From NCBI GenBank assembly GCA_041674405.1, contig JBAYVT010000001.1, positions 60,001 through 92,000 of the forward strand: a stretch of DNA of 32,000 nucleotides, given 5' to 3'. Both the position numbers and the translations under genes were made by a program. Below are positions 9,283-32,000 of this stretch, one piece after another; positions within the stretch are counted from its first letter, which is position 1, and every line of letters starts with the position of its first letter. Origin of the DNA: Patescibacteria group bacterium (lineage in GTDB: Bacteria; Patescibacteriota; UBA1384; XYA2-FULL-43-10). The notes under the pieces were generated by a model. The model searched no databases, was not told the origin of the DNA, and saw nothing but the letters and a program-made list of their open reading frames with translations.

Positions 9283-9356
9283 GACATTTTGTTTGTCATT
9301 TTACATTTGTAATTTGACATTTCAATTGTCATTTGTCATTTGTAATTTGACATTTA
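9283..9356. repeat. 33-bp tandem repeat, ~2.2 copies plus a degenerate copy upstream
   Basis: Unit 9283-9315 versus unit 9316-9348 match at 28 of 33 positions by hand alignment. A third partial unit overlaps the fusA stop. G(A/T)CATT submotifs recur with spacing 14-12-7. Confidence 0.8.
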
Positions 9357-11426
9357 CTTGGCTTTTCCCTCAATAATCTGCTGTGCAACATGCGGCGGAA
9401 CTTCGGCATATTTCTCAAATTCCATCGTGTTTGAAGCTCTACCCTGTGTCATCGAGCGAAGCGAAGTGGTATAGCCGAACATCGAGCCAAGTGGCACAAG
9501 CGCATGGACAAATTTGACGCTGCCCTTATCCCCCATCTCAAGAATCTGGCCGCGCTTCGAATTAAGGTCGCCCATAACATCGCCCATAAAATCTTCCGGG
9601 GTAAGGACTTCAACCTTCATGATAGGCTCGAGGATCACAGGATCAGCCTTCTTGAAACCATCCTGGAACGCCATCGAACCGGCAATCTTAAAGGCCATCT
9701 CAGACGAGTCAACTTCGTGGAATGAACCATCAAAAAGGTCGACTGCGACGTCAACAACCGGGTATCCGGCGATCACACCCTTACTCATTGCCTCTTCGAT
9801 ACCTTCATTGATCGGATTGATGAATTCACGAGGAATAGCGCCGCCAACGATGTTATTGATAAACTCATAACCTTTGCCGGCTTCCTGTGGAATAACCTTG
9901 ATAACAACATGTCCGTATTGGCCGCGCCCACCGGTCTGGCGGATATATTTGCCTTCTTGGGTGACTTCTTTGCGGCAAGTTTCGCGGTAAGCAACCTGCG
10001 GCTGGCCGACGTTGGCCTCTACCTTAAATTCACGTTTCATGCGGTCAACAAGGATCTCAAGGTGAAGCTCGCCCATACCGGCGATGATAGTCTGGCCGGT
10101 TTCCTGATTGGATGAGACGCGGAAAGTCGGATCTTCTTCAGCCAAACGCGCGAGTGCGATGCCCATTTTCTCTTGGTCAGCCTTGGTTTTCGGCTCGATA
10201 GCCACTTCGATAACAGGCTCCGGGAAAGTGATCTTCTCAAGAATCACCGGCTTTTCCATATCGCAAAGAGTTTCACCAGTTGTGGTGTTTGATAAACCGA
10301 CAGCGGCAGCGATTTCACCGGCATAGACCTCATCTACCTCTTCGCGGTGATTGGCATGTAAGCGGACGATTCGGCCGATGCGCTCTTTGCTACCAGTAGA
10401 TGAATTTAAAATGTATGAACCCTTCTTAAGGACGCCGCGGTAAACACGGAAAAAGATCAATTTGCCAACGAACGGATCAGCAGCAACTTTAAATGCTAGT
10501 GCCGCAAATGGCTCGTTATCATCGGCTTTGATCTCGATTTCCTCACCGGATTTCGGCTCGATTGCCTTGGCTGGCGGAACATCAAGAGGGGAGGGTAGGT
10601 AATCAACGATAGCATCCAAAAGTGAGATTACGATACAACCACGGCCATCGCCACCAAGAACCGGGTAAAAAGTACCGGTCAGAGTCGCTTTGCGAATTAG
10701 ATTGATAAGCTCGGACTCGGAAATTTCCTCGCCGTTCAAATATTTCTCCATCATCGCATCATCAAATTCGACAACTTTCTCGATAAGCTCTTGGCGATAC
10801 TTTTCAGCCTTCTCTTTGAGATCGGCTGGAACTTCGCCGGGTGTTAGCTCTTTATCATGATATTCCTTGTATGTGTAGCCCTTCATGCGGACCAAATCGA
10901 TAACGCCGTTAATAGACTGCTCAAAACCGATCGGGATCTGAATCGGGAAACAATTCGGCGAAAGACGTTCGCGCATCGAGTCAAGCGAGCGGTAGAAATC
11001 ACCGCCTGTCTGATTGATCTTATTGATAAAGCACATTCGAGGAACAGTATATTTATCAGCCTGACGCCATACAGTCTCGGACTGCGGCTCGACTCCCATT
11101 TTGCCATCGAAAATTACGACTGCCCCGTCAAGAACACGCAAAGAGCGCTCTACCTCTACGGTAAAGTCCACGTGGCCCGGAGTATCGATGATATTGATTC
11201 GATTGTTCTTCCAAAAAGCGGTGGTAGCGGCGGATGTAATAGTAATGCCGCGCTCACGCTCCTGCTCCATCCAGTCCATGGTAGCTTCACCTTCGTGAAC
11301 TTCGCCGATTTTGTGAGTTCGACCCGTGGTGTACAAAATACCCTCTGTAACAGTGGTTTTTCCGGCGTCGATGTGAGCAATAGTGCCAAAGTTTCTAACT
11401 TTTTCTAGTGGATAATCTCGTCCCAT
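9354..11426 (-). CDS. fusA: Elongation factor G
   Basis: 690 aa; [14 protein letters not shown] and NKID-like (INKIN) motifs; GGAGA SD. Confidence 0.98.
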
Positions 11427-11529: not shown

Positions 11530-11559
11530 ATTGTAGCACTTTTATTCTATAATTGTCAA
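11530..11559 (-). promoter_or_regulatory. Candidate promoter for fusA at the left edge of the island
   Basis: Minus sense TTGACA (11559-11554), 18-nt spacer, TACAAT (11535-11530). Confidence 0.55.
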
Positions 11560-12436: not shown

Positions 12437-12799
12437 CTACCGGATCAGTTCGTGTTTGAAATATTTTTCTTGGAACTCTACGGCTTTTTCGATTTCTTCG
12501 TCGAAATAGTCCCCGTCGTTGGCGGCACCAACCAATTTGTCTTCATTGTCATCTGTGCGGTGGATAATAGCGATGATTTTCACCTGTACTGATTCAACCG
12601 GCTTGTCTTCACCAAGAACAAAGACATCAATATCGTCGCCGTCGCCGGCTTTTATCCCTTCGATATAGCCATAATTAATCGGGTAAATGTGGTCGGGGTA
12701 TTTAGGATGAGCCGAGCCGAGCGGCCGATCTATTGTGACATTGTACTCTCTACCTAAAAATTTTTTATAATCCATTGAATCCCACCTAAATTCTGTCAT
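12437..12799 (-). CDS. Short inorganic pyrophosphatase-like protein
   Basis: DRPLGSAHPKYP...YGYIEG...DGDDIDVFVLG...DDNEDKLVGA resembles the family I PPase acidic core. I chose ATG 12799-12797, which forms an ATGA overlap with the CYTH stop. Confidence 0.65.
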   Translation of the reverse strand: MTEFRWDSMDYKKFLGREYNVTIDRPLGSAHPKYPDHIYPINYGYIEGIKAGDGDDIDVFVLGEDKPVESVQVKIIAIIHRTDDNEDKLVGAANDGDYFDEEIEKAVEFQEKYFKHELIR

Positions 12800-13305
12800 T
12801 TGTTTATAAGACGTTCTCGGATCATATCGGGATAGCCGCATTTATCGAGGCGATCGGATTTTTTGAAGCCAAATAGCTTTTCAATCTTCTCAACCTCTGA
12901 AATACTTGGTGATTCAATTTCTATAAAGTTGCCGAGATCTACTACTTCGTCAATCACGATTTCCGAATCACCATAGATATAAACTCTGCGCTTTTTATCC
13001 ACAACGACATCTATATCATGGCCGATTTTTTGTAATATTTCTTTTGCCATTTTGGCATCATCAATAGACATTTCCCATTCATCGGTCCGAGCATATGACG
13101 GAACGAAGTGATAAGCGAGTTCCTTTTTGTCTCCTTTTTCCCTGACTCTAAGATATTTGCGTCCCTCGGCGTTGTCCGGAACGAGAAAATACGTGTCGAT
13201 GCAGCGAAACTCTTTGACATATTTTGCGTCTATTTGATCCAACTTTTTGATAACTGCATCAGGATCGTCAATTTTGTACTTTAGTTCAATTTCAACATTT
13301 GGCAT
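12796..13305 (-). CDS. CYTH-domain protein (CyaB-like class IV adenylyl cyclase / triphosphate tunnel metalloenzyme family)
   Basis: 169 aa. N-terminal EIELKY (ExExK signature), YLRVRE, and IDEVVDLGNFIEIE C-terminal pattern typical of CyaB-like CYTH proteins. Confidence 0.75.
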   Translation of the reverse strand: MPNVEIELKYKIDDPDAVIKKLDQIDAKYVKEFRCIDTYFLVPDNAEGRKYLRVREKGDKKELAYHFVPSYARTDEWEMSIDDAKMAKEILQKIGHDIDVVVDKKRRVYIYGDSEIVIDEVVDLGNFIEIESPSISEVEKIEKLFGFKKSDRLDKCGYPDMIRERLINK

Positions 13306-13909
13306 GGGATTTTATATCTCCAATTAATTCTGGAAATTCATCTTGATTGAAGTGCCCGCGGTCTTCGAAGACCTGGGATTTGGCACTTGGCAGCTGCTTT
13401 TCAAATACCGCAAGCTCCGAATACGGCACTATCGGGTCGTCTTTGCTTTGATACAAGAAGATATTTTTCGCCTGTTTTTCGATATTGGAAAGCGAGTCTG
13501 GAAGCCTGAAATCTTCACAATCTGCAGTGTTATTATGCGGTGGAGCTACCAGATGAAGTGATTTGATCTTCTTCGGAAAGTCATTCTCAGCCAGGTATTT
13601 GGCGAGGAACATGCCGCCAAGAGAGTGGCCTATTAGAACCACGTCGTCGTTTAGGAACGGAAACATGCGCTCAAACCAGATTTTCCACTCCTTATATTTC
13701 GCATCATATTTGTTTGGCATTTGGGGGTTGAAAACCTCAAAATCATCGCCGAGTACGGACTGAAGTGAAATTTTCCAGTCATACCTGGTTTTAAACTTCT
13801 CTGGTCTTACTTCCCAGGTTTTTAGCGAGTTCAGATAGTCTTCGTACGTTTTGAACGAATCCCCGCCATGCATCACAACCACTTGTTTCTTTGCCATTAT
13901 TGAGTCCAC
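13292..13909 (-). CDS. Alpha/beta serine hydrolase (YdeN/RBBP9-like)
   Basis: GHSLGG nucleophile elbow, later SKDDPIV and DRGHF. The track start at 13909 is GTG; ATG at 13897 (MAKKQVVVMHGG) is an alternative. Confidence 0.7.
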   Translation of the reverse strand: MDSIMAKKQVVVMHGGDSFKTYEDYLNSLKTWEVRPEKFKTRYDWKISLQSVLGDDFEVFNPQMPNKYDAKYKEWKIWFERMFPFLNDDVVLIGHSLGGMFLAKYLAENDFPKKIKSLHLVAPPHNNTADCEDFRLPDSLSNIEKQAKNIFLYQSKDDPIVPYSELAVFEKQLPSAKSQVFEDRGHFNQDEFPELIGDIKSHAKC

Positions 13910-13968: not shown

Positions 13969-14226
13969 TCAATATTCCAATTTATATCTCCCGTTTATCA
14001 AGAAGTAGGCTGGGAGATTGTTTTTATCTTCGGCAAGGATTCCGAGGACGTTTTTGCAGTCGCATTGCAGAAAATCGGGAGGGGGCGAACTTAGATATTT
14101 ATTTGGCGCTAATATATTCGACACATGGCAAAAGTGATTTTTGCACTCCCCTACCTTACTCATCTCGAGAACAACCTTGCCGCAGTCACTGCAGACTACT
14201 TTGACTGAACCTGTCCCTCCATCCAT
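13969..14226 (-). CDS. Small Cys-rich (zinc-ribbon-like) protein ZnA, 85 aa
   Basis: I chose ATG 14226 because GGAAGGAG lies 4 nt upstream; the track start at 14250 is TTG. Motifs: VVCSDCG...CKNHFCH...CDCKNVLGILAED. Confidence 0.6.
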   Translation of the reverse strand: MDGGTGSVKVVCSDCGKVVLEMSKVGECKNHFCHVSNILAPNKYLSSPPPDFLQCDCKNVLGILAEDKNNLPAYFLINGRYKLEY

Positions 14227-14248
14227 CGCACTCCTTCCAAAAATTAGC

Positions 14249-14420
14249 AAAATAAAAAGGGTCTCCCGCTGGCGGCACCCTTGCGGGTGCCCTACAACCT
14301 TTCGGCCGTAGACACATCAGCATACCAGACAGAAGACCGTCTTTATTGCTGATGTGTATTTTTTGCCATGCCCTTGCGGGTTTAGGCAATTGCTGTGTTA
14401 TCGACAGCATCAATATTTTA
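14249..14420 (-). promoter_or_regulatory. Structured 5' leader of ZnA with GNRA hairpins and a terminator/antiterminator-like 3' end (unclassified)
   Basis: Minus sense: UUGCC..CCC-GCAA-GGG..GGCAA; an 11-bp stem ACACAUCAGCA/UGCUGAUGUGU; CUACGGCC-GAAA-GGUUGUAG; GGCACCC-GCAA-GGGUGCC (14291-14274). The 3' arm of that last hairpin is shared with GGGU..CCG-CCAG-CGG..ACCC followed by UUUUUAUUUU (14280-14249). A weak possible promoter is TTGGAT-17-TTTAAT (14466-14438). Confidence 0.45.
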
Positions 14421-14506
14421 CCCCAAATCAATGGAGAATTAAATAGCATTTAATACATCTATCCAACCCTGCAAACAACTCGCCCCGAAAACAATTCAAC
14501 AAAACC

Positions 14507-14544
14507 TATCGTCGATTTATCGACGATCGTTCATATTTCGACGA
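14507..14544. repeat. 38-bp nested-palindrome repeat R1 (putative operator)
   Basis: tatcgtcgatttatcgacgatcgttcatatttcgacga, containing the dyads tcgtcgat-tt-atcgacga and acgatcgt. Confidence 0.85.
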
Positions 14545-14573
14545 CCAAAGACAATACAAGGATATGCGGATTG

Positions 14574-14603
14574 TTGACCTAGGTGTATTTCTTAAGTTAA
14601 TAT
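14574..14603 (+). promoter_or_regulatory. Candidate promoter of the G+C-rich orphan unit
   Basis: TTGACC (14574-14579), then TTAATA after 17 nt or TAATAT after 18 nt; 30 bp downstream of R1. Confidence 0.5.
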
Positions 14604-14609
14604 TGCTGC

Positions 14610-14921
14610 AAGTTGCCTAAACCACTGCACTGGAGCTGAGAATCATGCCAAAACATCCTCGAGGCAAAAGAGGTGGCCGAAGCAATCCCGGAAAGGGCAG
14701 CAAGTCCTCGATGGAAAAGCGCTGTGGATTGCCGGCACATCCCCTCCCGCAAGCGATTGACCATTCGGGAACGCTCGGCCCAGACATGGGATGGCTAGAC
14801 CACGAAGCACCCGGAGTAGACTTTCTGAGCCTACCTCCAACCACTCGCGACCACGGGCAATAGCCCAATCCTCGCAGAACCAAGAAAGGCGCCGGCAAAA
14901 GTCGGGGCCTTCTTGTTTTTT
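14610..14921 (+). ncRNA. Orphan G+C-rich transcription unit: candidate ~310-nt ncRNA (alternatively a 72-aa basic protein, 14645-14863)
   Basis: Bounded by the promoter above and an intrinsic terminator (stem 14884-14912 with AAAA loop, then UUGUUUUUU). In the 72-codon ORF, 39 of 72 third positions are G/C by hand count, i.e. no GC3 enrichment. The first 60 codons of the neighbouring G+C-rich MTase give 44 of 60. Confidence 0.35.
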
Positions 14922-14933
14922 AATTAAAAATTC

Positions 14934-15173
14934 TTAGCAATGGCCTTTGTGATAGACTTTGCCTTGAATTATTTTGTTCGCTTTCCTTGTGTGATATGTT
15001 GCCTCACGAGCAAAAAGCCCGCCACATTTGGGACACTTTAAGTCACCATTCGTATAATCTTCGATAATCCGATCTTTATAACATTTTACGAGATGGCCGG
15101 GCTTATCTTTTTGATAGTAATAAAGCTCGGCATTGCAATTTGCGCAGTAGATTTTGATTTTATATATCTTCAT
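14934..15173 (-). CDS. Small Cys-rich (zinc-ribbon-like) protein ZnB, 79 aa, apparent paralog of ZnA
   Basis: IYCANCN...VKC...KCPKCGGLFAREA, with the same knuckle order and G-hydrophobic-hydrophobic-A-acidic motif as ZnA. Confidence 0.6.
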   Translation of the reverse strand: MKIYKIKIYCANCNAELYYYQKDKPGHLVKCYKDRIIEDYTNGDLKCPKCGGLFAREATYHTRKANKIIQGKVYHKGHC

Positions 15174-15187
15174 TATTTTGAATTCCG

Positions 15188-15814
15188 TTATCGTCGATTT
15201 ATCGACGATCGTTTATATTTCGACGATTGGATTTTATCATTAACGGATTCTCGCTCTACTGGTTTGTGACCGGGATTTTTGGATAGAATTTTTGCGATGT
15301 AATTTTCGATATTTGACGATTCAACTACAAAGTAAGCCACATATTCCTCAACTCGATATTCTTTGGACAGCATTTCCACCATATCACCGATATTCCGATC
15401 GCAGACCCAGAGACTTTTCTGAATTTGCCGAAAGCCCATTTGTTTTATCGATCTTCGAAATGCATTTCTTTGTCTTTTTTTAGTCTCTGGAATATCGAAC
15501 GAAACGAGCCGGCGTTTATGGTCTTTCTGGTCCAATACTAATTTGTCGATCATTTTAATCTTTGCTTTATTAGTAAATTTCACCGAATCGCCATTATCAA
15601 TCTCAACATAATTATTTCTCTTAAGGCTATAAATCACGCTCGAAATCTGCCGCCTCGAAATACCGGAAGCACCAAAGCGAACATTAAAATAATCAAGCAT
15701 TTCTGTTTGTTTCATTGATCGTTGATGCTTTTTTACAAATTCAATGATCAAATTTAACGCAGTTTCAATGCATCCTTTCATTAATATCTGCGAATTTCTA
15801 GGCGTCATATACAT
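15188..15814 (-). CDS. PaaX-family-like regulator: N-terminal winged-helix plus Cas2-like ferredoxin-fold domain
   Basis: 208 aa. The wHTH-like segment is ISRRQISSVIYSLKRNNYVE. RLVSFDIPETKKRQRNAFRRSIKQMGFRQIQKSLWVC...YVAYFVVES matches the beta-alpha-beta pattern of Cas2/PaaX central domains. Confidence 0.65.
   Translation of the reverse strand: MYMTPRNSQILMKGCIETALNLIIEFVKKHQRSMKQTEMLDYFNVRFGASGISRRQISSVIYSLKRNNYVEIDNGDSVKFTNKAKIKMIDKLVLDQKDHKRRLVSFDIPETKKRQRNAFRRSIKQMGFRQIQKSLWVCDRNIGDMVEMLSKEYRVEEYVAYFVVESSNIENYIAKILSKNPGHKPVERESVNDKIQSSKYKRSSINRR
15189..15226. repeat. 38-bp repeat R2
   Basis: Identical to R1 except one C>T (37/38). It lies 15 nt upstream of the ZnB ATG and encodes the last ~12 codons of the regulator ORF. 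Confidence 0.85.
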
Positions 15815-15846: not shown

Positions 15847-15884
15847 TGCCGTCGAATATTGAACGATCGTTCATATTTCGACGA
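15847..15884. repeat. 38-bp repeat R3 (diverged), with an inverted partial half-site at 15903-15916
   Basis: The 24-bp core gaacgatcgttcatatttcgacga matches R1 at 22 of 24 positions, and about 31 of 38 overall. It lies between the divergent regulator and methyltransferase genes. Confidence 0.75.
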
Positions 15885-16030
15885 TAACCTTAATACAATT
15901 TATCGAAGATGAACGAAATTATATAATGGATCTTTGTTGATGATTATATTTTGATCATGGACAAATTCGCGGGAATGTGCTATCGTTTATCGTTGTCTGC
16001 ACACCACACACTGAAGGAGGAAGAAGACAG

Positions 16031-16819
16031 ATGAACAAGACCGCCCAAAGACTTTCGAAGAGGTGGCCGCCCTTTCTCCACAAAGTTGTGGAGGCGCCGT
16101 ATGAATCGGCGGACGTGATCTTGCGCATGCTCCGATACAATCCAGAGAAGGCGATGGCAAAGTATCCCCGGCTTCGTGAGATCAAGGACGCATCGGAGAT
16201 CAGCCGGGTCTTTGCGCGCTATGGCCCCCATGGCATCTTCACGGTATCGGACAAGGAGCTGCCGAGGGTGATGGCAGCAGTCGGTGACAACTATGGGGTG
16301 CTCATGACCGTCGAGGACCACGCCTGGATCATGGACAACCTCCTGGAGCAGCTCAGGAGTCCCGCGTCGTTTCTCGATGTGGGATGCGGAGTTTGTCCCT
16401 ACACCGCTTTCCTGGTCCGTGAGGGATACCTTCGCGGCCAGGTGGTGGGAGTCGACCAGATGCCCGAAATACTTGGCCGCGCAAGAGAAGTCTTCGAGCG
16501 CGCACAGGCATCTCACCCACTGGTCCTCGGGACTGCGCTCCGGCTTCCGTTTGCAGATGCGTCCTTCGAACACGTGTTCTGCAACGATGCCCTGCACTGG
16601 ATCAAGGGGTGGAGACGCGCACTCAACGAGATGTGCCGCGTGCTTGCACCAGGCGGACGGCTGTTTGTCTGCTACTCGGTGAAGTTCACGCGAACGCTGA
16701 TCACCGAGCGCGGCATCATCGAGGAGCTGGCCAAGCACGGGATCAAGCCCGCGTTCGTCTCGTTCGACGCCGTGGGCAGCCAGACGCCCCGGACGATTGT
16801 CACCGGGTGCAAAGAATAG
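16031..16819 (+). CDS. Class I SAM-dependent methyltransferase (G+C-rich)
   Basis: Motif I FLDVGCGVCPY, then LRLPFADASFEHVF and LAPGGRLFV. I chose ATG 16031 after AAGGAGG; the track start at 15977 is GTG. Confidence 0.75.
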   Translation: MNKTAQRLSKRWPPFLHKVVEAPYESADVILRMLRYNPEKAMAKYPRLREIKDASEISRVFARYGPHGIFTVSDKELPRVMAAVGDNYGVLMTVEDHAWIMDNLLEQLRSPASFLDVGCGVCPYTAFLVREGYLRGQVVGVDQMPEILGRAREVFERAQASHPLVLGTALRLPFADASFEHVFCNDALHWIKGWRRALNEMCRVLAPGGRLFVCYSVKFTRTLITERGIIEELAKHGIKPAFVSFDAVGSQTPRTIVTGCKE

Positions 16820-16868
16820 GAGGTGGAAGAGCTGAAGAGCGGACCAAGTGTCCGCTTTTGGCTTTTAA
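16818..16868 (+). terminator. Terminator-containing ~50-bp direct repeat, copy A
   Basis: ggaggtggaagagctGAAGAGCGGACcaagtGTCCGCTTTTGGCTTTTAA. The 35-bp core 16834-16868 is identical to 17970-18004; hairpin AGCGGAC/GTCCGCU followed by a U-run. Confidence 0.7.
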
Positions 16869-17017
16869 TCGCCAACTTGGCAATCATTTAATCCGTAAAG
16901 TTTCACATAGCCAAATTCGATGGCTAATAACCTTGACGAAGGAGGCTAATAATGTTATGTTGAACATCGACTTCGAACCACATACCTTTCACATACCTTC
17001 TAAGGGGGAATCGGATA

Positions 17018-17947
17018 ATGCGAGGCGTTAGCCTTCTGAAGTCGTTGGTGAGTTGGGTCGGAAGCTGGATCACGTTCATCATCGCGCTTGCGGTGATGGC
17101 CGGGTTCTGGTTCGGGTGCTACATGGCGGTGAAGACTTGGGCACCAGAGTATCTGCACTACTTCGATCTGGGCCTCTGGATCGCCGGGGGTTTGGCCGGG
17201 GTGATGCTCGTCTTCAACGAGCCGATCGTCGTTCTAGCCACTGGCGCCAGCCGAGTCAAGGAGCCGCTAGCCTTGGGCTCGGAGCGCAAGCTCTGGAACG
17301 CCGTAATGGCGGTAAGCGGCAGTATGATGATCAAGCCGCGCGTCTATCTGCTTCCAGACTTAGGCATGAACGCCATCAGCTTCGGCTGGGGAATCCCGTT
17401 CATGTCGGCCGTTGGAGCAACGCAAGGCGCCGTACACAGTCTAAGCGACGAAGAGCTGCAGGCCGTGATGGCACACGAGGTCGGGCACATCCTCAACAAG
17501 GACATCCTGATTTCTACCGCGATGGCCGCATCGGTCATGGTTATGGCCTTGACCGGCTGGCTTCTTATGCGGGTCGCCCCATGGACTGGCGGTAGGCGAA
17601 GCTCCTCATCAGAAAGCTCTAGCGGAGGGATCGCGATCCTGGTCTTCCTGGTCGTGGGTGGCGTGATGTACATTTTCGGCCGCCTACTGGGTAGCGTTCT
17701 GCAGGCGTTTGTCTCGCGACAGCGAGAGTATGTTGCGGATACTACCTCGGCCCGGATCATGGGATCGGGGGAGCCTCTGATCAGCGCCTTGCGCAAAGTC
17801 ACCGGTTACCCCTCGATTGGGTCTGATGTTGCGGCAGCCGCCGTAGGGTTCCTTTGCACTGCAGACCCCAATCCCGAGGACATGATGGCGACGCACCCGT
17901 CGCTGTCGGACAGGATTTACCACCTGAAAGACCTGTCTGGGGAGTAA
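17018..17947 (+). CDS. M48-family (HtpX-like) membrane zinc metallopeptidase (G+C-rich)
   Basis: 309 aa. HEVGHILNKD (HExxH), downstream EYVAD, and several hydrophobic helices. GGGGGA SD 7 nt upstream. Confidence 0.8.
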   Translation: MRGVSLLKSLVSWVGSWITFIIALAVMAGFWFGCYMAVKTWAPEYLHYFDLGLWIAGGLAGVMLVFNEPIVVLATGASRVKEPLALGSERKLWNAVMAVSGSMMIKPRVYLLPDLGMNAISFGWGIPFMSAVGATQGAVHSLSDEELQAVMAHEVGHILNKDILISTAMAASVMVMALTGWLLMRVAPWTGGRRSSSSESSSGGIAILVFLVVGGVMYIFGRLLGSVLQAFVSRQREYVADTTSARIMGSGEPLISALRKVTGYPSIGSDVAAAAVGFLCTADPNPEDMMATHPSLSDRIYHLKDLSGE

Positions 17948-29954: not shown

Positions 29955-30031
29955 CGGGGTGTAGCGCAGCCTGGTAGCGCGCATCGTTCGGGACGATGAG
30001 GCCCGCGGTTCAAATCCGCGCACCCCGACCA
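29955..30031 (+). tRNA. tRNA-Pro (anticodon CGG), CCA encoded
   Basis: CGGGGTG / GCGC-AGCCTGGTA-GCGC / CATCG-TTCGGGA-CGATG / CGCGG-TTCAAAT-CCGCG / CACCCCG-A-CCA. Confidence 0.9.
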
Positions 30032-30064
30032 TAGTATTTAATCAACCATTTAATATATTCCTAT

Positions 30065-30099
30065 ATAAACTTCAACGCCTCCCGCATGCAACACGGGAG
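30065..30099. terminator. G+C-rich hairpin between tRNA-Pro and the purL 3' end
   Basis: AACGCCUCCCG-catgcaaca-CGGGAGGCGUU then UUUUU on the plus strand (terminates tRNA-Pro). It lies ~37 nt after the purL stop on the minus strand. Confidence 0.65.
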
Positions 30100-30131
30100 G
30101 CGTTTTTTGTTCTGTTTTCCCTCCTTCTGGG

Positions 30132-32000
30132 CTATCTCGGGTGCTCCATGCACCAGGTGTACATGTTCTGGATGGCGGTCAGCCAGGGGCTGGCCTTGAG
30201 TCGTTTCCAGCTATCGGGCATCCAGGGCAGCTGCCAGAGCTGCCAGAGCCGCTCGATGTGCGGCATGGTGATGACGTGGCGACCATCCGGCGTGCAGAGA
30301 CCGGCGATGCCGTAGGGGCTTCCGTTCGGGTTGAACGGATAATCCATAGTGGCCTCGCCGTCTGGCCCGACATAGGTCATCGGGACCAGGTTGTTCGTGC
30401 GGATCCAGTCCAGCACGCTTTGGTCGTGGCAGTAGAGCCGGCCTTCGCCGTGCGCTACGATGATGCCGAGGATCGAGTTCTCCATGCCCTTGAACATAAT
30501 GGCGGGAGATTGCCCAACCTTGACCGTCACGTAGCGCGACTCGAACATCCCGGACTCGTTCTTAAGGAAGCGTGGCCTACGCTCAAGAGGCAGGGACTGG
30601 TCGGGAGCGATCCCAAGCAGGGCAGCAGTCTGCGTTCCGTTGCAGGCGTGGTAGCTCAGAGTATCTTTCCGCTCGAAGAAGAATCTGCGGTACTGCTCCC
30701 ACGCCAGAGGGTTCTCCTCGATTGATGCAGCCCAGCCCACTCCCGACTCCATTGGCTCGTCCTGGTAGGAAAAGCCGCCGACCTCGGCCGCGACTCGAAA
30801 GTCGTCGAGCGTTGACCGACCGTCTATGAAGTCAGTCGTCATAAGGTCGTAGGGATCGAAACCGGCCTGGTAAAACATCCCCGCCATCTCGCGATCGCCG
30901 TTGCTGCCCGGTGCGCGAATGATGGCTACCTTAGGCCGGTCATTTCTCCGCAGTATTTTGGCTGACGTCGGTCGGGGGACAAACGTCAGCATGTACGGCG
31001 GAGGCACGAGCAGAGTCGGAATGGTATTGCGCTCTTGCTCGATGCACTTGGGGTTGGTGTCAATGGCGTCGAGCTGGAACGAGGTCTCCATCCAGGCTTG
31101 GCGCAGATTGACCATCGGTGACCGGTGGACAATCTTGCCATTGTGTTTGACCTGAATTTGTGGAGATTTCGAACGCTTGACGCCGGCGATCACGTTGGCT
31201 TTCAGGCCGGAAGCTCGGTAGTGTTTGACCACTTGCCGCGCGTCCTTCGCCCTGCAGCCAATGACGACTCCCGGAACCTCCGAGAAGTAGTGCCGAAGCC
31301 AGCCGAAGCGGCCTGCACTCGCAATCTCGAGGCCGACGCCGGAGACGAAGGCCGTCTCGAGCAGGGTGGTGATCAGTCCGCCATCACTGATATCGTGCAG
31401 CATCCTGATCTCTCCAGACTCGAGTAGATTCTGAGTCGTTTCGAAGTAGCTGATCACTCGCTCGATGTTGACGTCCGCGCAATCGTCGCCCGTCTGGCCG
31501 TAAACCTGCGAAAGCGCGCTTGCGCCGAGAGGCTTGTAGTCCGGCGACAGGTCGACATGAATCAGAGTGTCAACATCGTCCTCGATCACCGGAGTGACCT
31601 TGACAGTGATGTCGGGCATCTGTGCCGCTAGAGTGACGAATATGGTTACCGGCCACTTGACCTTGGTAACCTCGCCGGCTGGGCTCTGTGCCAGGTTGTT
31701 GCCAGAGCTGGAGTCCTTGCCGCCTAGCTGGCGCATGCCGATCTGGATTTGTGCTTCAGCCAGGGCACTGGCGGTCTCTTCGATGATCACGCCCTCGCCG
31801 GGCGCTTTTGCATCGGAGAACCAGTTGATCTCGCAGTTCACGTCACCCAGGTTGGTGATCTTTGCCCCGGAGATGCTGATCAGAGCCTCGGCCAGAGTCA
31901 TTCTCGCCGTTGCACCGCCGGAAATGAGGCCGAGGTGCGGGCGGACAGCCGACGCCATGACGGTGCCGACCGTGTCGAGGAAGCTGTTGGCCATGATCCA
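30132..32000 (-). CDS. purL: Phosphoribosylformylglycinamidine (FGAM) synthase, large single-chain form, C-terminal ~620 aa; N-terminus off-window; G+C-rich
   Basis: Glutaminase domain motifs VAIIRAPGSNGDREM, ACNG, AHGEGR, NPNGSPYGIAGLCTPDGRHVITMPHIER. The frame stays open to base 32000. Confidence 0.85.
   Translation of the reverse strand, partial: WIMANSFLDTVGTVMASAVRPHLGLISGGATARMTLAEALISISGAKITNLGDVNCEINWFSDAKAPGEGVIIEETASALAEAQIQIGMRQLGGKDSSSGNNLAQSPAGEVTKVKWPVTIFVTLAAQMPDITVKVTPVIEDDVDTLIHVDLSPDYKPLGASALSQVYGQTGDDCADVNIERVISYFETTQNLLESGEIRMLHDISDGGLITTLLETAFVSGVGLEIASAGRFGWLRHYFSEVPGVVIGCRAKDARQVVKHYRASGLKANVIAGVKRSKSPQIQVKHNGKIVHRSPMVNLRQAWMETSFQLDAIDTNPKCIEQERNTIPTLLVPPPYMLTFVPRPTSAKILRRNDRPKVAIIRAPGSNGDREMAGMFYQAGFDPYDLMTTDFIDGRSTLDDFRVAAEVGGFSYQDEPMESGVGWAASIEENPLAWEQYRRFFFERKDTLSYHACNGTQTAALLGIAPDQSLPLERRPRFLKNESGMFESRYVTVKVGQSPAIMFKGMENSILGIIVAHGEGRLYCHDQSVLDWIRTNNLVPMTYVGPDGEATMDYPFNPNGSPYGIAGLCTPDGRHVITMPHIERLWQLWQLPWMPDSWKRLKASPWLTAIQNMYTWCMEHPR

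Follow-up and report, generated by a model that had tools for sequence, protein, structure and literature searches.

The window analysed here is a stretch of 32,000 nucleotides (nt) from a Patescibacteria group bacterium (assembly GCA_041674405.1, contig JBAYVT010000001.1, positions 60,001 to 92,000). On its minus strand, positions 14249-14389 are a copy of LOOT RNA, an already catalogued family, lying just upstream of a gene for a small cysteine-rich protein, here called ZnA. The main finding is that in 68 of the 68 LOOT copies compared a helix of 12-16 base pairs (bp) joins the apex of the second hairpin (P2) to a tail just 3' of the fourth hairpin (P4), and that this helix is absent from the Rfam model of the family. 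Because the helix covaries, is followed by a U-run and stands before a gene on the same strand, we regard LOOT as a leader. From these sequence comparisons, we judge the chances to be about even that it acts in cis as a two-state leader, or attenuator, of the ZnA mRNA.

A cmscan search of Rfam 15 gave a full-length match to LOOT (RF03000) at 14274-14388 on the minus strand, scoring 76.1 bits where the gathering score is 46.4; the match is untruncated, spanning model positions 1-121 of 121, with E = 7.7e-13 for the window. An earlier note on this DNA had described an unclassified leader, and had added that a match in Rfam would make the element known rather than novel. It is therefore known, and the word unclassified was wrong. 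The hairpins, which include a long P2, are capped by the stable tetraloops GCAA, UCUU, GAAA and GCAA, and the internal loop of P1 has the family's form CCUAA[A/C] / [C/U]AUGG, with CCUAAA at 14381-14386 and CAUGG at 14366-14370. The unconstrained minimum free energy (MFE) structure of 14274-14390 on the minus strand (-62.3 kcal/mol) consists of the four hairpins P1-P4 and equals the structure of the model. It is far more stable than dinucleotide shuffles (mean -32.6 kcal/mol, z = -7.47), none of 200 being as stable. The four hairpins that the earlier note had listed are all present where it placed them, and its choice of the minus strand, made from the loop sequences, holds, since folding of the plus strand is weaker by 9.5 kcal/mol. 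The parts of the leader, in order from its 5' end, are as follows.

14415-14420, minus strand: candidate -10 box TAAAAT, read from the sequence
14392-14408, minus strand: small 5' hairpin GCUGU-CGAUAAC-ACAGC, just upstream of P1 and outside the Rfam model
14363-14389, minus strand: P1, with outer stem UUGCC/GGCAA, internal loop CCUAAA/CAUGG and inner hairpin CCC-GCAA-GGG (cmscan alignment and MFE)
14347-14357, minus strand: 5' arm (X) of the 11-bp P2 outer stem, ACACAUCAGCA (cmscan and MFE)
14339-14346, minus strand: A-rich linker AUAAAGAC, joining the P2 outer stem to the apex, read from the sequence
14324-14338, minus strand: P2 apex segment (Y), GGUCUUCUGUCUGGU, able to fold locally into the apical hairpin AGACGG-UCUU-CUGUCU or to enter the long-range tail helix
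14312-14322, minus strand: 3' arm (X') of the P2 outer stem, UGCUGAUGUGU (cmscan, MFE and changes among paralogues)
14292-14311, minus strand: P3 hairpin, CUACGGCC-GAAA-GGUUGUAG (cmscan and MFE)
14274-14291, minus strand: P4 hairpin, GGCACCC-GCAA-GGGUGCC, where the Rfam model ends (cmscan, MFE and alignment)
14260-14273, minus strand: 3' tail (Y'), GCCAGCGGGAGACC, pairing with the P2 apex in the helix that the Rfam model does not have
14249-14259, minus strand: U-run CUUUUUAUUUU, starting 1 nt past the tail helix

The U-run is probably a terminator-like U-tract, and the A-rich linker could lengthen the tail helix by pairing with it. At the place of the small 5' hairpin, the two other LOOT copies in the genome have a hairpin of unrelated sequence. 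The loop of P3 is GAAA in all 66 assessable loci, and over the 68 loci the two halves of the P1 internal loop covary, with CCUAAA facing CAUGG 34 times, CCUAAC facing UAUGG 22 times and the canonical receptor pair CCUAAG/UAUGG occurring once. By analogy with known tetraloop receptors, this suggests that the P3 loop may dock into the receptor-like P1 loop to give a compact fold.

The LOOT family reportedly comes from the 2017 screen of Weinberg et al. It is not discussed in the main text of that paper (PMC5737381). The CaCoFold paper gives about 43 base pairs in six helices with 28 'cross-covariations' for LOOT (PMC7657543), and in the Rfam 15 paper the family gains 2 added base pairs (PMC11701678). 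No published function for LOOT was found in the literature searched. The Rfam entry has the type 'Gene; sRNA' (small RNA), and its model stops at P4. A likely leader role and the extra helix exceed what has been published, yet both remain computational. LOOT has been catalogued since 2017 without a function and filed as an sRNA, and a promoter-proximal position together with a covarying, putative switch helix would turn it into a testable regulatory element.

The evidence for the extra helix is drawn from 68 loci, 39 in a first set and 29, from other classes, that were held out. In the window, GGUCUUCUG(u)CUGGU (14324-14338) pairs with the tail (14260-14273), both on the minus strand, with a duplex energy of -23.1 kcal/mol (RNAduplex). 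Throughout the first set (39 loci), the 12-18 nt immediately 3' of P4 pair with apical P2 at one fixed place, and the mean duplex energy is -22.7 kcal/mol for a copy's own tail against -13.6 for shuffled tails. When tails were exchanged between copies, which needs no alignment, foreign tails reached -15.1 kcal/mol, and the matrix of distinct helix classes was strongly diagonal. The held-out loci repeat this result (own tails -21.7, shuffled -13.4, foreign -14.4 kcal/mol). Each of nine proximal positions of the helix shows four or five standard pair types, and in every locus a U/G-rich run follows the helix after a gap of 0-1 nt.

Covariation was counted on a plain MAFFT alignment of the 39 loci, which had not been fitted to any structure. 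Of the 14 pairs of the tail helix, 12 vary at both positions, with 90.8% of cells paired; in the same alignment the figures are 8/8 pairs and 98.4% for P3, and 5/7 pairs and 91.0% for P4. The tail helix is thus on a par with P3 and P4 in pairing support. For the whole structure, 93.5% of cells pair, as against 72.8% in shuffles (0/500 reach the observed value) and 36-46% when the register is slid, and the changes retain RNA pairs, G.U included. Even among the three paralogous copies within this genome, both partners vary in 10 of the 39 predicted pairs, and compensatory changes are seen in the P2 outer stem. The segments 14324-14338 and 14260-14273 make a defined pair for mutation and compensation tests.

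This evidence also bears on the idea that LOOT is not an RNA at all, being instead a DNA-level recombination or binding site of mobile elements, for example for a neighbouring serine recombinase. P2 is indeed an inverted repeat of variable sequence, and in 6 of the 9 relatives sampled a large serine recombinase lies divergently about 100-200 nt upstream. We nevertheless consider such a site scarcely credible: the G.U pairs and GNRA loops appear on one strand only, the minus strand is the more stable by 9.5 kcal/mol, and the covariation keeps RNA pairs, including G.U. Moreover, no recombinase adjoins any of the three copies in the source genome, where a single one was found, about 7.6 kb away from the paralogous copy L003.

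The tail helix excludes the apical hairpin of P2. In the window copy, 7 of the 14 apex bases that pair with the tail are locally paired in the core MFE structure, and in 67 of the 68 loci at least four such bases are also locally paired in the apical hairpin. Their mean energies are -9.0 kcal/mol for the apical hairpin and -22.2 kcal/mol for the tail helix. LOOT combines a conserved aptamer-like core with mutually exclusive platform pairings of the kind seen in riboswitches: apical hairpin against tail in 67/68 loci, and tail against a downstream partner (described below) in 37/67. The helix also resembles an intrinsic terminator, in being a G+C-rich 14-bp helix (-21 to -23 kcal/mol) that ends 1 nt before a U-tract. 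The energies calculated for alternative conformers of the window copy are:

-63.9 kcal/mol: Rfam-like fold, with the tail free
-59.3 kcal/mol: tail helix closed, P2 outer stem open
-56.0 kcal/mol: the alternative conformer of the earlier note
about -75 kcal/mol, before any loop penalty: pseudoknot that keeps both P2 and the tail helix

The earlier note had proposed a mutually exclusive terminator and antiterminator. Exclusive pairings beside the U-run are indeed found, and the partners differ from those it named, being the P2 apical hairpin and the apex-tail helix. In its own version of the switch, GGGUGCC, the 3' arm of P4, is used in turn by P4, as the anti-terminator, and by a local hairpin (GGGU..CCG-CCAG-CGG..ACCC) followed by the U-run, as the terminator. 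This hairpin exists in the window copy (-7.2 kcal/mol), and the paralogous copy L002 has an analogous one (-8.7 kcal/mol) that is terminator-like by a consensus scan. It is weak, however: the conformer that contains it lies about 8 kcal/mol above the native fold (-56.0 against -63.9), and P4 alone is worth -14.3 and the tail-apex helix -23.1 kcal/mol. Nor is it conserved, for it is essentially missing in the paralogous copy L003 (-3.2 kcal/mol), averages -4.8 kcal/mol over the 39 loci and falls below -5 in only 13 of them, while the covariation of the tail is with the P2 apex and not with P4. We consider that form of the switch very unlikely.

The position of LOOT relative to genes is that of a leader. 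Downstream, the nearest substantial open reading frame (ORF) shares the strand of LOOT in 32/36 loci of the first set and in 29/29 held-out loci, whereas on the upstream side 18/38 loci of the first set are same-strand, a split of 18 to 20. At least one of the four downstream exceptions (L001) is an artefact of the ORF picker, which took an antisense ORF over ZnA. The start codon lies at a median of about 55 nt past the LOOT core, and in 52 of 64 loci it is no more than 80 nt away; in the window, only 22 nt separate the U-run from the ZnA AUG. Start codons this close leave no room for a promoter belonging to the downstream gene. The leader role described in the earlier note is in this way broadly supported, the element being leader-like and promoter-proximal in its behaviour.

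In the window copy a candidate -10 box precedes the small 5' hairpin, and in each of the three paralogous copies TAAAAT or TAATAT is separated by 6-7 nt from a small hairpin that precedes P1. The relatives have an upstream motif wTGCTA-N16/17-nACAwT, which ends 4-12 nt before P1. A sigma-70 consensus promoter at a fixed distance was rejected as a general feature, since enrichment was modest (26% of loci with at least 8/12 matches, against 7% of random anchors) and the window copy gave no match. A closing helix between an upstream 'UACAA' and a 'UUGUA' past the U-run was rejected too (-4.2 against -3.6 kcal/mol in shuffles), and the word 'UACAA' fits better as a -10 box.

These observations are relevant to the view that LOOT is a stand-alone trans-acting sRNA, with its own promoter and with the tail helix and U-run as its own terminator, so that ZnA would be expressed by leak-through or would be unrelated. 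The type given in Rfam agrees with this view, as do the promoter-like boxes just upstream, with the enrichment given above, and the helix and U-run that close the RNA in every copy. There is also a hint of possible trans pairing in genome G110, where the pre-start sequence at locus L039 fits the P2 arm of that genome's other copy, L024, better than its own. Against it, an independent transcription unit is hard to reconcile with a downstream gene that is on the same strand in 32/36 and 29/29 loci, compared with 18/38 upstream, and with start codons too near for a separate promoter; the putative seed would be buried in a stable stem; and the downstream elements described next make sense only in cis. 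We therefore regard a trans-acting sRNA as rather unlikely.

Three kinds of element downstream of LOOT involve its own strands. Firstly, the tail has a downstream partner in 21/38 loci of the first set and 16/29 of the held-out loci, against about 21% of shuffles. Secondly, in loci L007 and L017, both from genome G035, the tail partner doubles as the 5' arm of a canonical terminator of hairpin plus U7 (CCAGCU-AUUGAAA-AGCUGG-U7 and CUAGCU-UUAA-AGCUAG-U7); judged by sequence, this is the textbook arrangement of aptamer helix, putative anti-terminator and predicted terminator. Thirdly, in 13 of the 68 loci (L005, L012, L016, L020, L023, L030, L033, L038, L134, L137, L142, L146 and L154) a second copy of the P2 5' arm, 10-17 nt long and often reading CCGACCAAGG, stands 0-8 nt ahead of the AUG and keeps a fixed distance from the core, so that the 3' arm of P2 could sequester the ribosome-binding site.

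A mechanism for the two-state leader can be proposed as follows. With the apical P2 hairpin closed, the tail would be free, and the polymerase would read into ZnA and perhaps on into the hydrolase, CYTH and pyrophosphatase genes that follow. Should the tail invade the apex, the helix of about 14 bp directly before the U-run would terminate transcription and leave an RNA of about 140 nt. The choice would be set by something that locks the native P1-P4 fold, for which a ligand, a protein or folding kinetics are candidates. In other platforms, a native fold with a locked apex would free the tail to pair with its downstream partner and so form an anti-terminator, as in L007 and L017. In the loci with repeats, an intact P2 would keep its 3' arm, which resembles an anti-Shine-Dalgarno sequence, occupied and leave the ribosome-binding site free. 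We infer from this that the LOOT platforms could be unified under one logic.

Several points weigh against this attenuator. The genes downstream of LOOT are very diverse (a C-5 methylase, T5orf172, SNase and PD-(D/E)XK-like proteins, membrane proteins, a hydrophobic segment being found in 40/64, and here ZnA) and form no coherent pathway, unlike those of a typical metabolite riboswitch. The tail helix is not a compact hairpin, since it encloses about 60 nt (the 3' arm of P2, P3 and P4), which is unusual for an intrinsic terminator. Compact hairpins followed by U-runs are not enriched in the window (27, against 23.5 +/- 5.1 expected), and the organism may not rely on compact terminator signals. 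The three copies of the source genome have neither a tail partner, nor a P2-arm repeat, nor a shared terminator arm. In the loci with P2-arm repeats, the simplest logic (the native fold would free the ribosome-binding site) opposes one in which the tail helix means off, and the two would be reconciled only by an extra assumption. Rfam, as noted, files LOOT as an sRNA. Lastly, the tail helix could coexist with P2 in a static pseudoknot, with no switching.

The last point leads to an account of LOOT as a static structured 5' untranslated region: a single pseudoknotted fold of P1-P4 and the tail helix, acting as an mRNA stabiliser, translation enhancer or insulator, in which the U-run is structural (with the A-rich linker) or a pause site. 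By the crude estimate above (about -75 kcal/mol), the pseudoknot that retains P2 alongside the tail helix comes out as the most stable of the conformers, and the tetraloop-receptor module speaks for a rigid fold. Such an account would also suit a cargo too varied for the signal of a single metabolite, the lack of enrichment of canonical terminators in the window and the absence of further platform elements from the three copies in this genome. A static element would not, however, be expected to carry conserved exclusive pairings (apical hairpin against tail in 67/68 loci, tail against downstream partner in about 55%), P2-arm repeats before the AUG in 13/68 loci, or the platform of L007 and L017 with its canonical terminator. 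These features count against it, and we give it a low probability, similar to that of the trans-acting sRNA.

Returning to the two-state leader, a wider reading can be put forward tentatively. LOOT may be an orphan class of riboswitch-like attenuator native to the Patescibacteria (candidate phyla radiation, CPR), in which an aptamer braced by a tetraloop and its receptor has its apex either closed (genes on) or invaded by the tail (termination), and in which the tail is re-used in several platforms that control the cargo of integrative elements, here three copies of an orphan zinc protein. Such a class would respond to a ligand or a protein.

LOOT is present in 12/61 relatives, in 29/151 genomes of the class and in 30/151 from a sample of the whole phylum, at 1-3 copies per genome, and in 0/14 control genomes. 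Its hosts are small CPR/Patescibacteria genomes. It therefore occurs in about 20% of the sampled Patescibacteria, a group that lacks genetics and in which very few RNA regulators are known. The source genome (929 kb, estimated 98.7% complete), whose EF-G is nearest to that of Patescibacteria metagenome-assembled genomes, has three copies, and in all three the tail is followed by a U-run, a strong Shine-Dalgarno sequence (SD) and a ZnA paralogue. Among the relatives, a serine recombinase with Resolvase, Recombinase and Zn_ribbon_recom domains lies divergently, about 100-200 nt upstream of LOOT, at L004, L022, L024, L027, L029 and L038, so that many LOOT copies stand at the edge of integrative elements.

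The features downstream of the leader in the window are:

14231-14238, minus strand: SD of ZnA, GGAAGGAG, 10 nt past the U-run
13969-14226, minus strand: ZnA, an orphan Cys-rich protein of 85 amino acids (CxxC ... CxxxxCH ... CDC), with its AUG at 14226
13292-13909, minus strand: alpha/beta hydrolase (Pfam)
12796-13305, minus strand: CYTH protein (Pfam)
12437-12841, minus strand: inorganic pyrophosphatase (Pfam)

The three ZnA paralogues in the source genome are 63-68% identical, and each stands behind a LOOT copy; the SDs of the other two are GGAGGGAG and GGAGGGA, at equal spacing. Three paralogous genes for orphan zinc proteins are thus tied to one control element. ZnA has no Pfam or NCBIfam family matches and only 2 matches among 5.8 billion proteins. 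Four distant relatives (L047-L050; 30-38% identity) are found in a sister family and carry a YQKDGPGWLKRCY signature that is also found in ZnB (14934-15173). No LOOT was found upstream of these four. A general association of LOOT with ZnA is therefore rejected, the pairing being seen in the source genome only, and the link is a lineage-specific duplication of a module, not a rule of the family. As a separate observation, ZnA, ZnB and the distant relatives make up a family of small zinc-ribbon proteins (CxxC ... YQKDGPGWLKRCY ... CDC) that is uncatalogued, with no matching Pfam or NCBIfam model, and the ZnA-type members are nearly unique to the source genome.

The hydrolase, CYTH and pyrophosphatase gene calls of the earlier note are upheld by Pfam. 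The three genes are on the same strand as ZnA and overlap or are closely spaced. As that note had also said, there is no terminator-like site on the minus strand between ZnA and these genes, and their co-transcription with ZnA is plausible. They were rejected as a conserved operon, since the two closest CYTH-bearing relatives lack both neighbours. Different genes follow the two other LOOT-ZnA modules. Further along, a near-consensus promoter (TTGACA-18-TACAAT with a TG extension, 11/12 matches) at 11530-11559 on the minus strand precedes the EF-G gene (9354-11426) and marks the end of a possible transcription unit from ZnA to a 245-amino-acid ORF.

It is worth adding some observations on the other side of LOOT. 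A 38-nt element, GAAATATGAACG-ATCGTCGAT-AA-ATCGACGAT-AGG, with three TCGTCGA/TCGACGA half-sites, has six copies in the genome, listed here:

14507-14544: about 120 nt upstream of LOOT
15189-15226: copy in the window
15850-15884: copy in the window
G000 C5:132512: copy elsewhere in the source genome
G000 C1:17241: copy elsewhere in the source genome
G000 C1:203732: copy elsewhere in the source genome

The three copies in the window flank ZnB and a PaaX-like gene (winged helix-turn-helix plus Cas2-like, 15188-15814). The element could be an array of operators for the PaaX-like regulator, or else a hairpin of terminator type. A non-coding stretch of about 385 nt (14545-14930), GC-rich (about 0.47-0.50) and unique in the genome, separates ZnB from the LOOT promoter region. 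It was rejected as a second non-coding RNA, with no Rfam match at E < 0.7, no tRNA or tmRNA and fold z-scores of -1.2 and -1.3, and it may be the remnant of a decayed gene. At about 14880-14915 on the minus strand there is a terminator-like hairpin for ZnB. Blocks with a G+C content of 0.57-0.59 are found at 15977-17947 and 30001-32000, the genome being at about 0.40-0.44; the first holds two plus-strand ORFs of 280 and 309 amino acids, of which the 280-amino-acid ORF is methyltransferase-like by eye only.

Finally, LOOT can be compared with known systems. The module of a GAAA tetraloop and its 11-nt receptor occurs in group I and group II introns, RNase P RNA and c-di-GMP-I riboswitches. The P1 loop of LOOT, CCUAA[A/C]...[C/U]AUGG, is similar to the canonical receptor CCUAAG...UAUGG; it differs in the sixth base and its partner, the canonical G.U giving way to covarying combinations of A and C or of C and U. 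In the 13 of the 68 loci with a P2-arm repeat, where the arm, often CCGACCAAGG, comes with an SD-like AAGG, LOOT is like the SD/anti-SD/anti-anti-SD switches of RNA thermometers and translational riboswitches, a feature that is missing from the three copies of the source genome, whose strong SDs are free. There is also a likeness in architecture to the ZTP, preQ1-I and fluoride riboswitches, which act on transcription and in which a strand of the aptamer pseudoknot is shared with the expression platform. Like these, LOOT is a compact, aptamer-like domain with a 3' strand that can pair either inside or downstream, beside a U-tract. It differs from them in that its gene context points to no candidate ligand and its downstream genes form no coherent pathway, and in that in most LOOT copies the long-range helix itself abuts the U-run, in place of a separate compact terminator.

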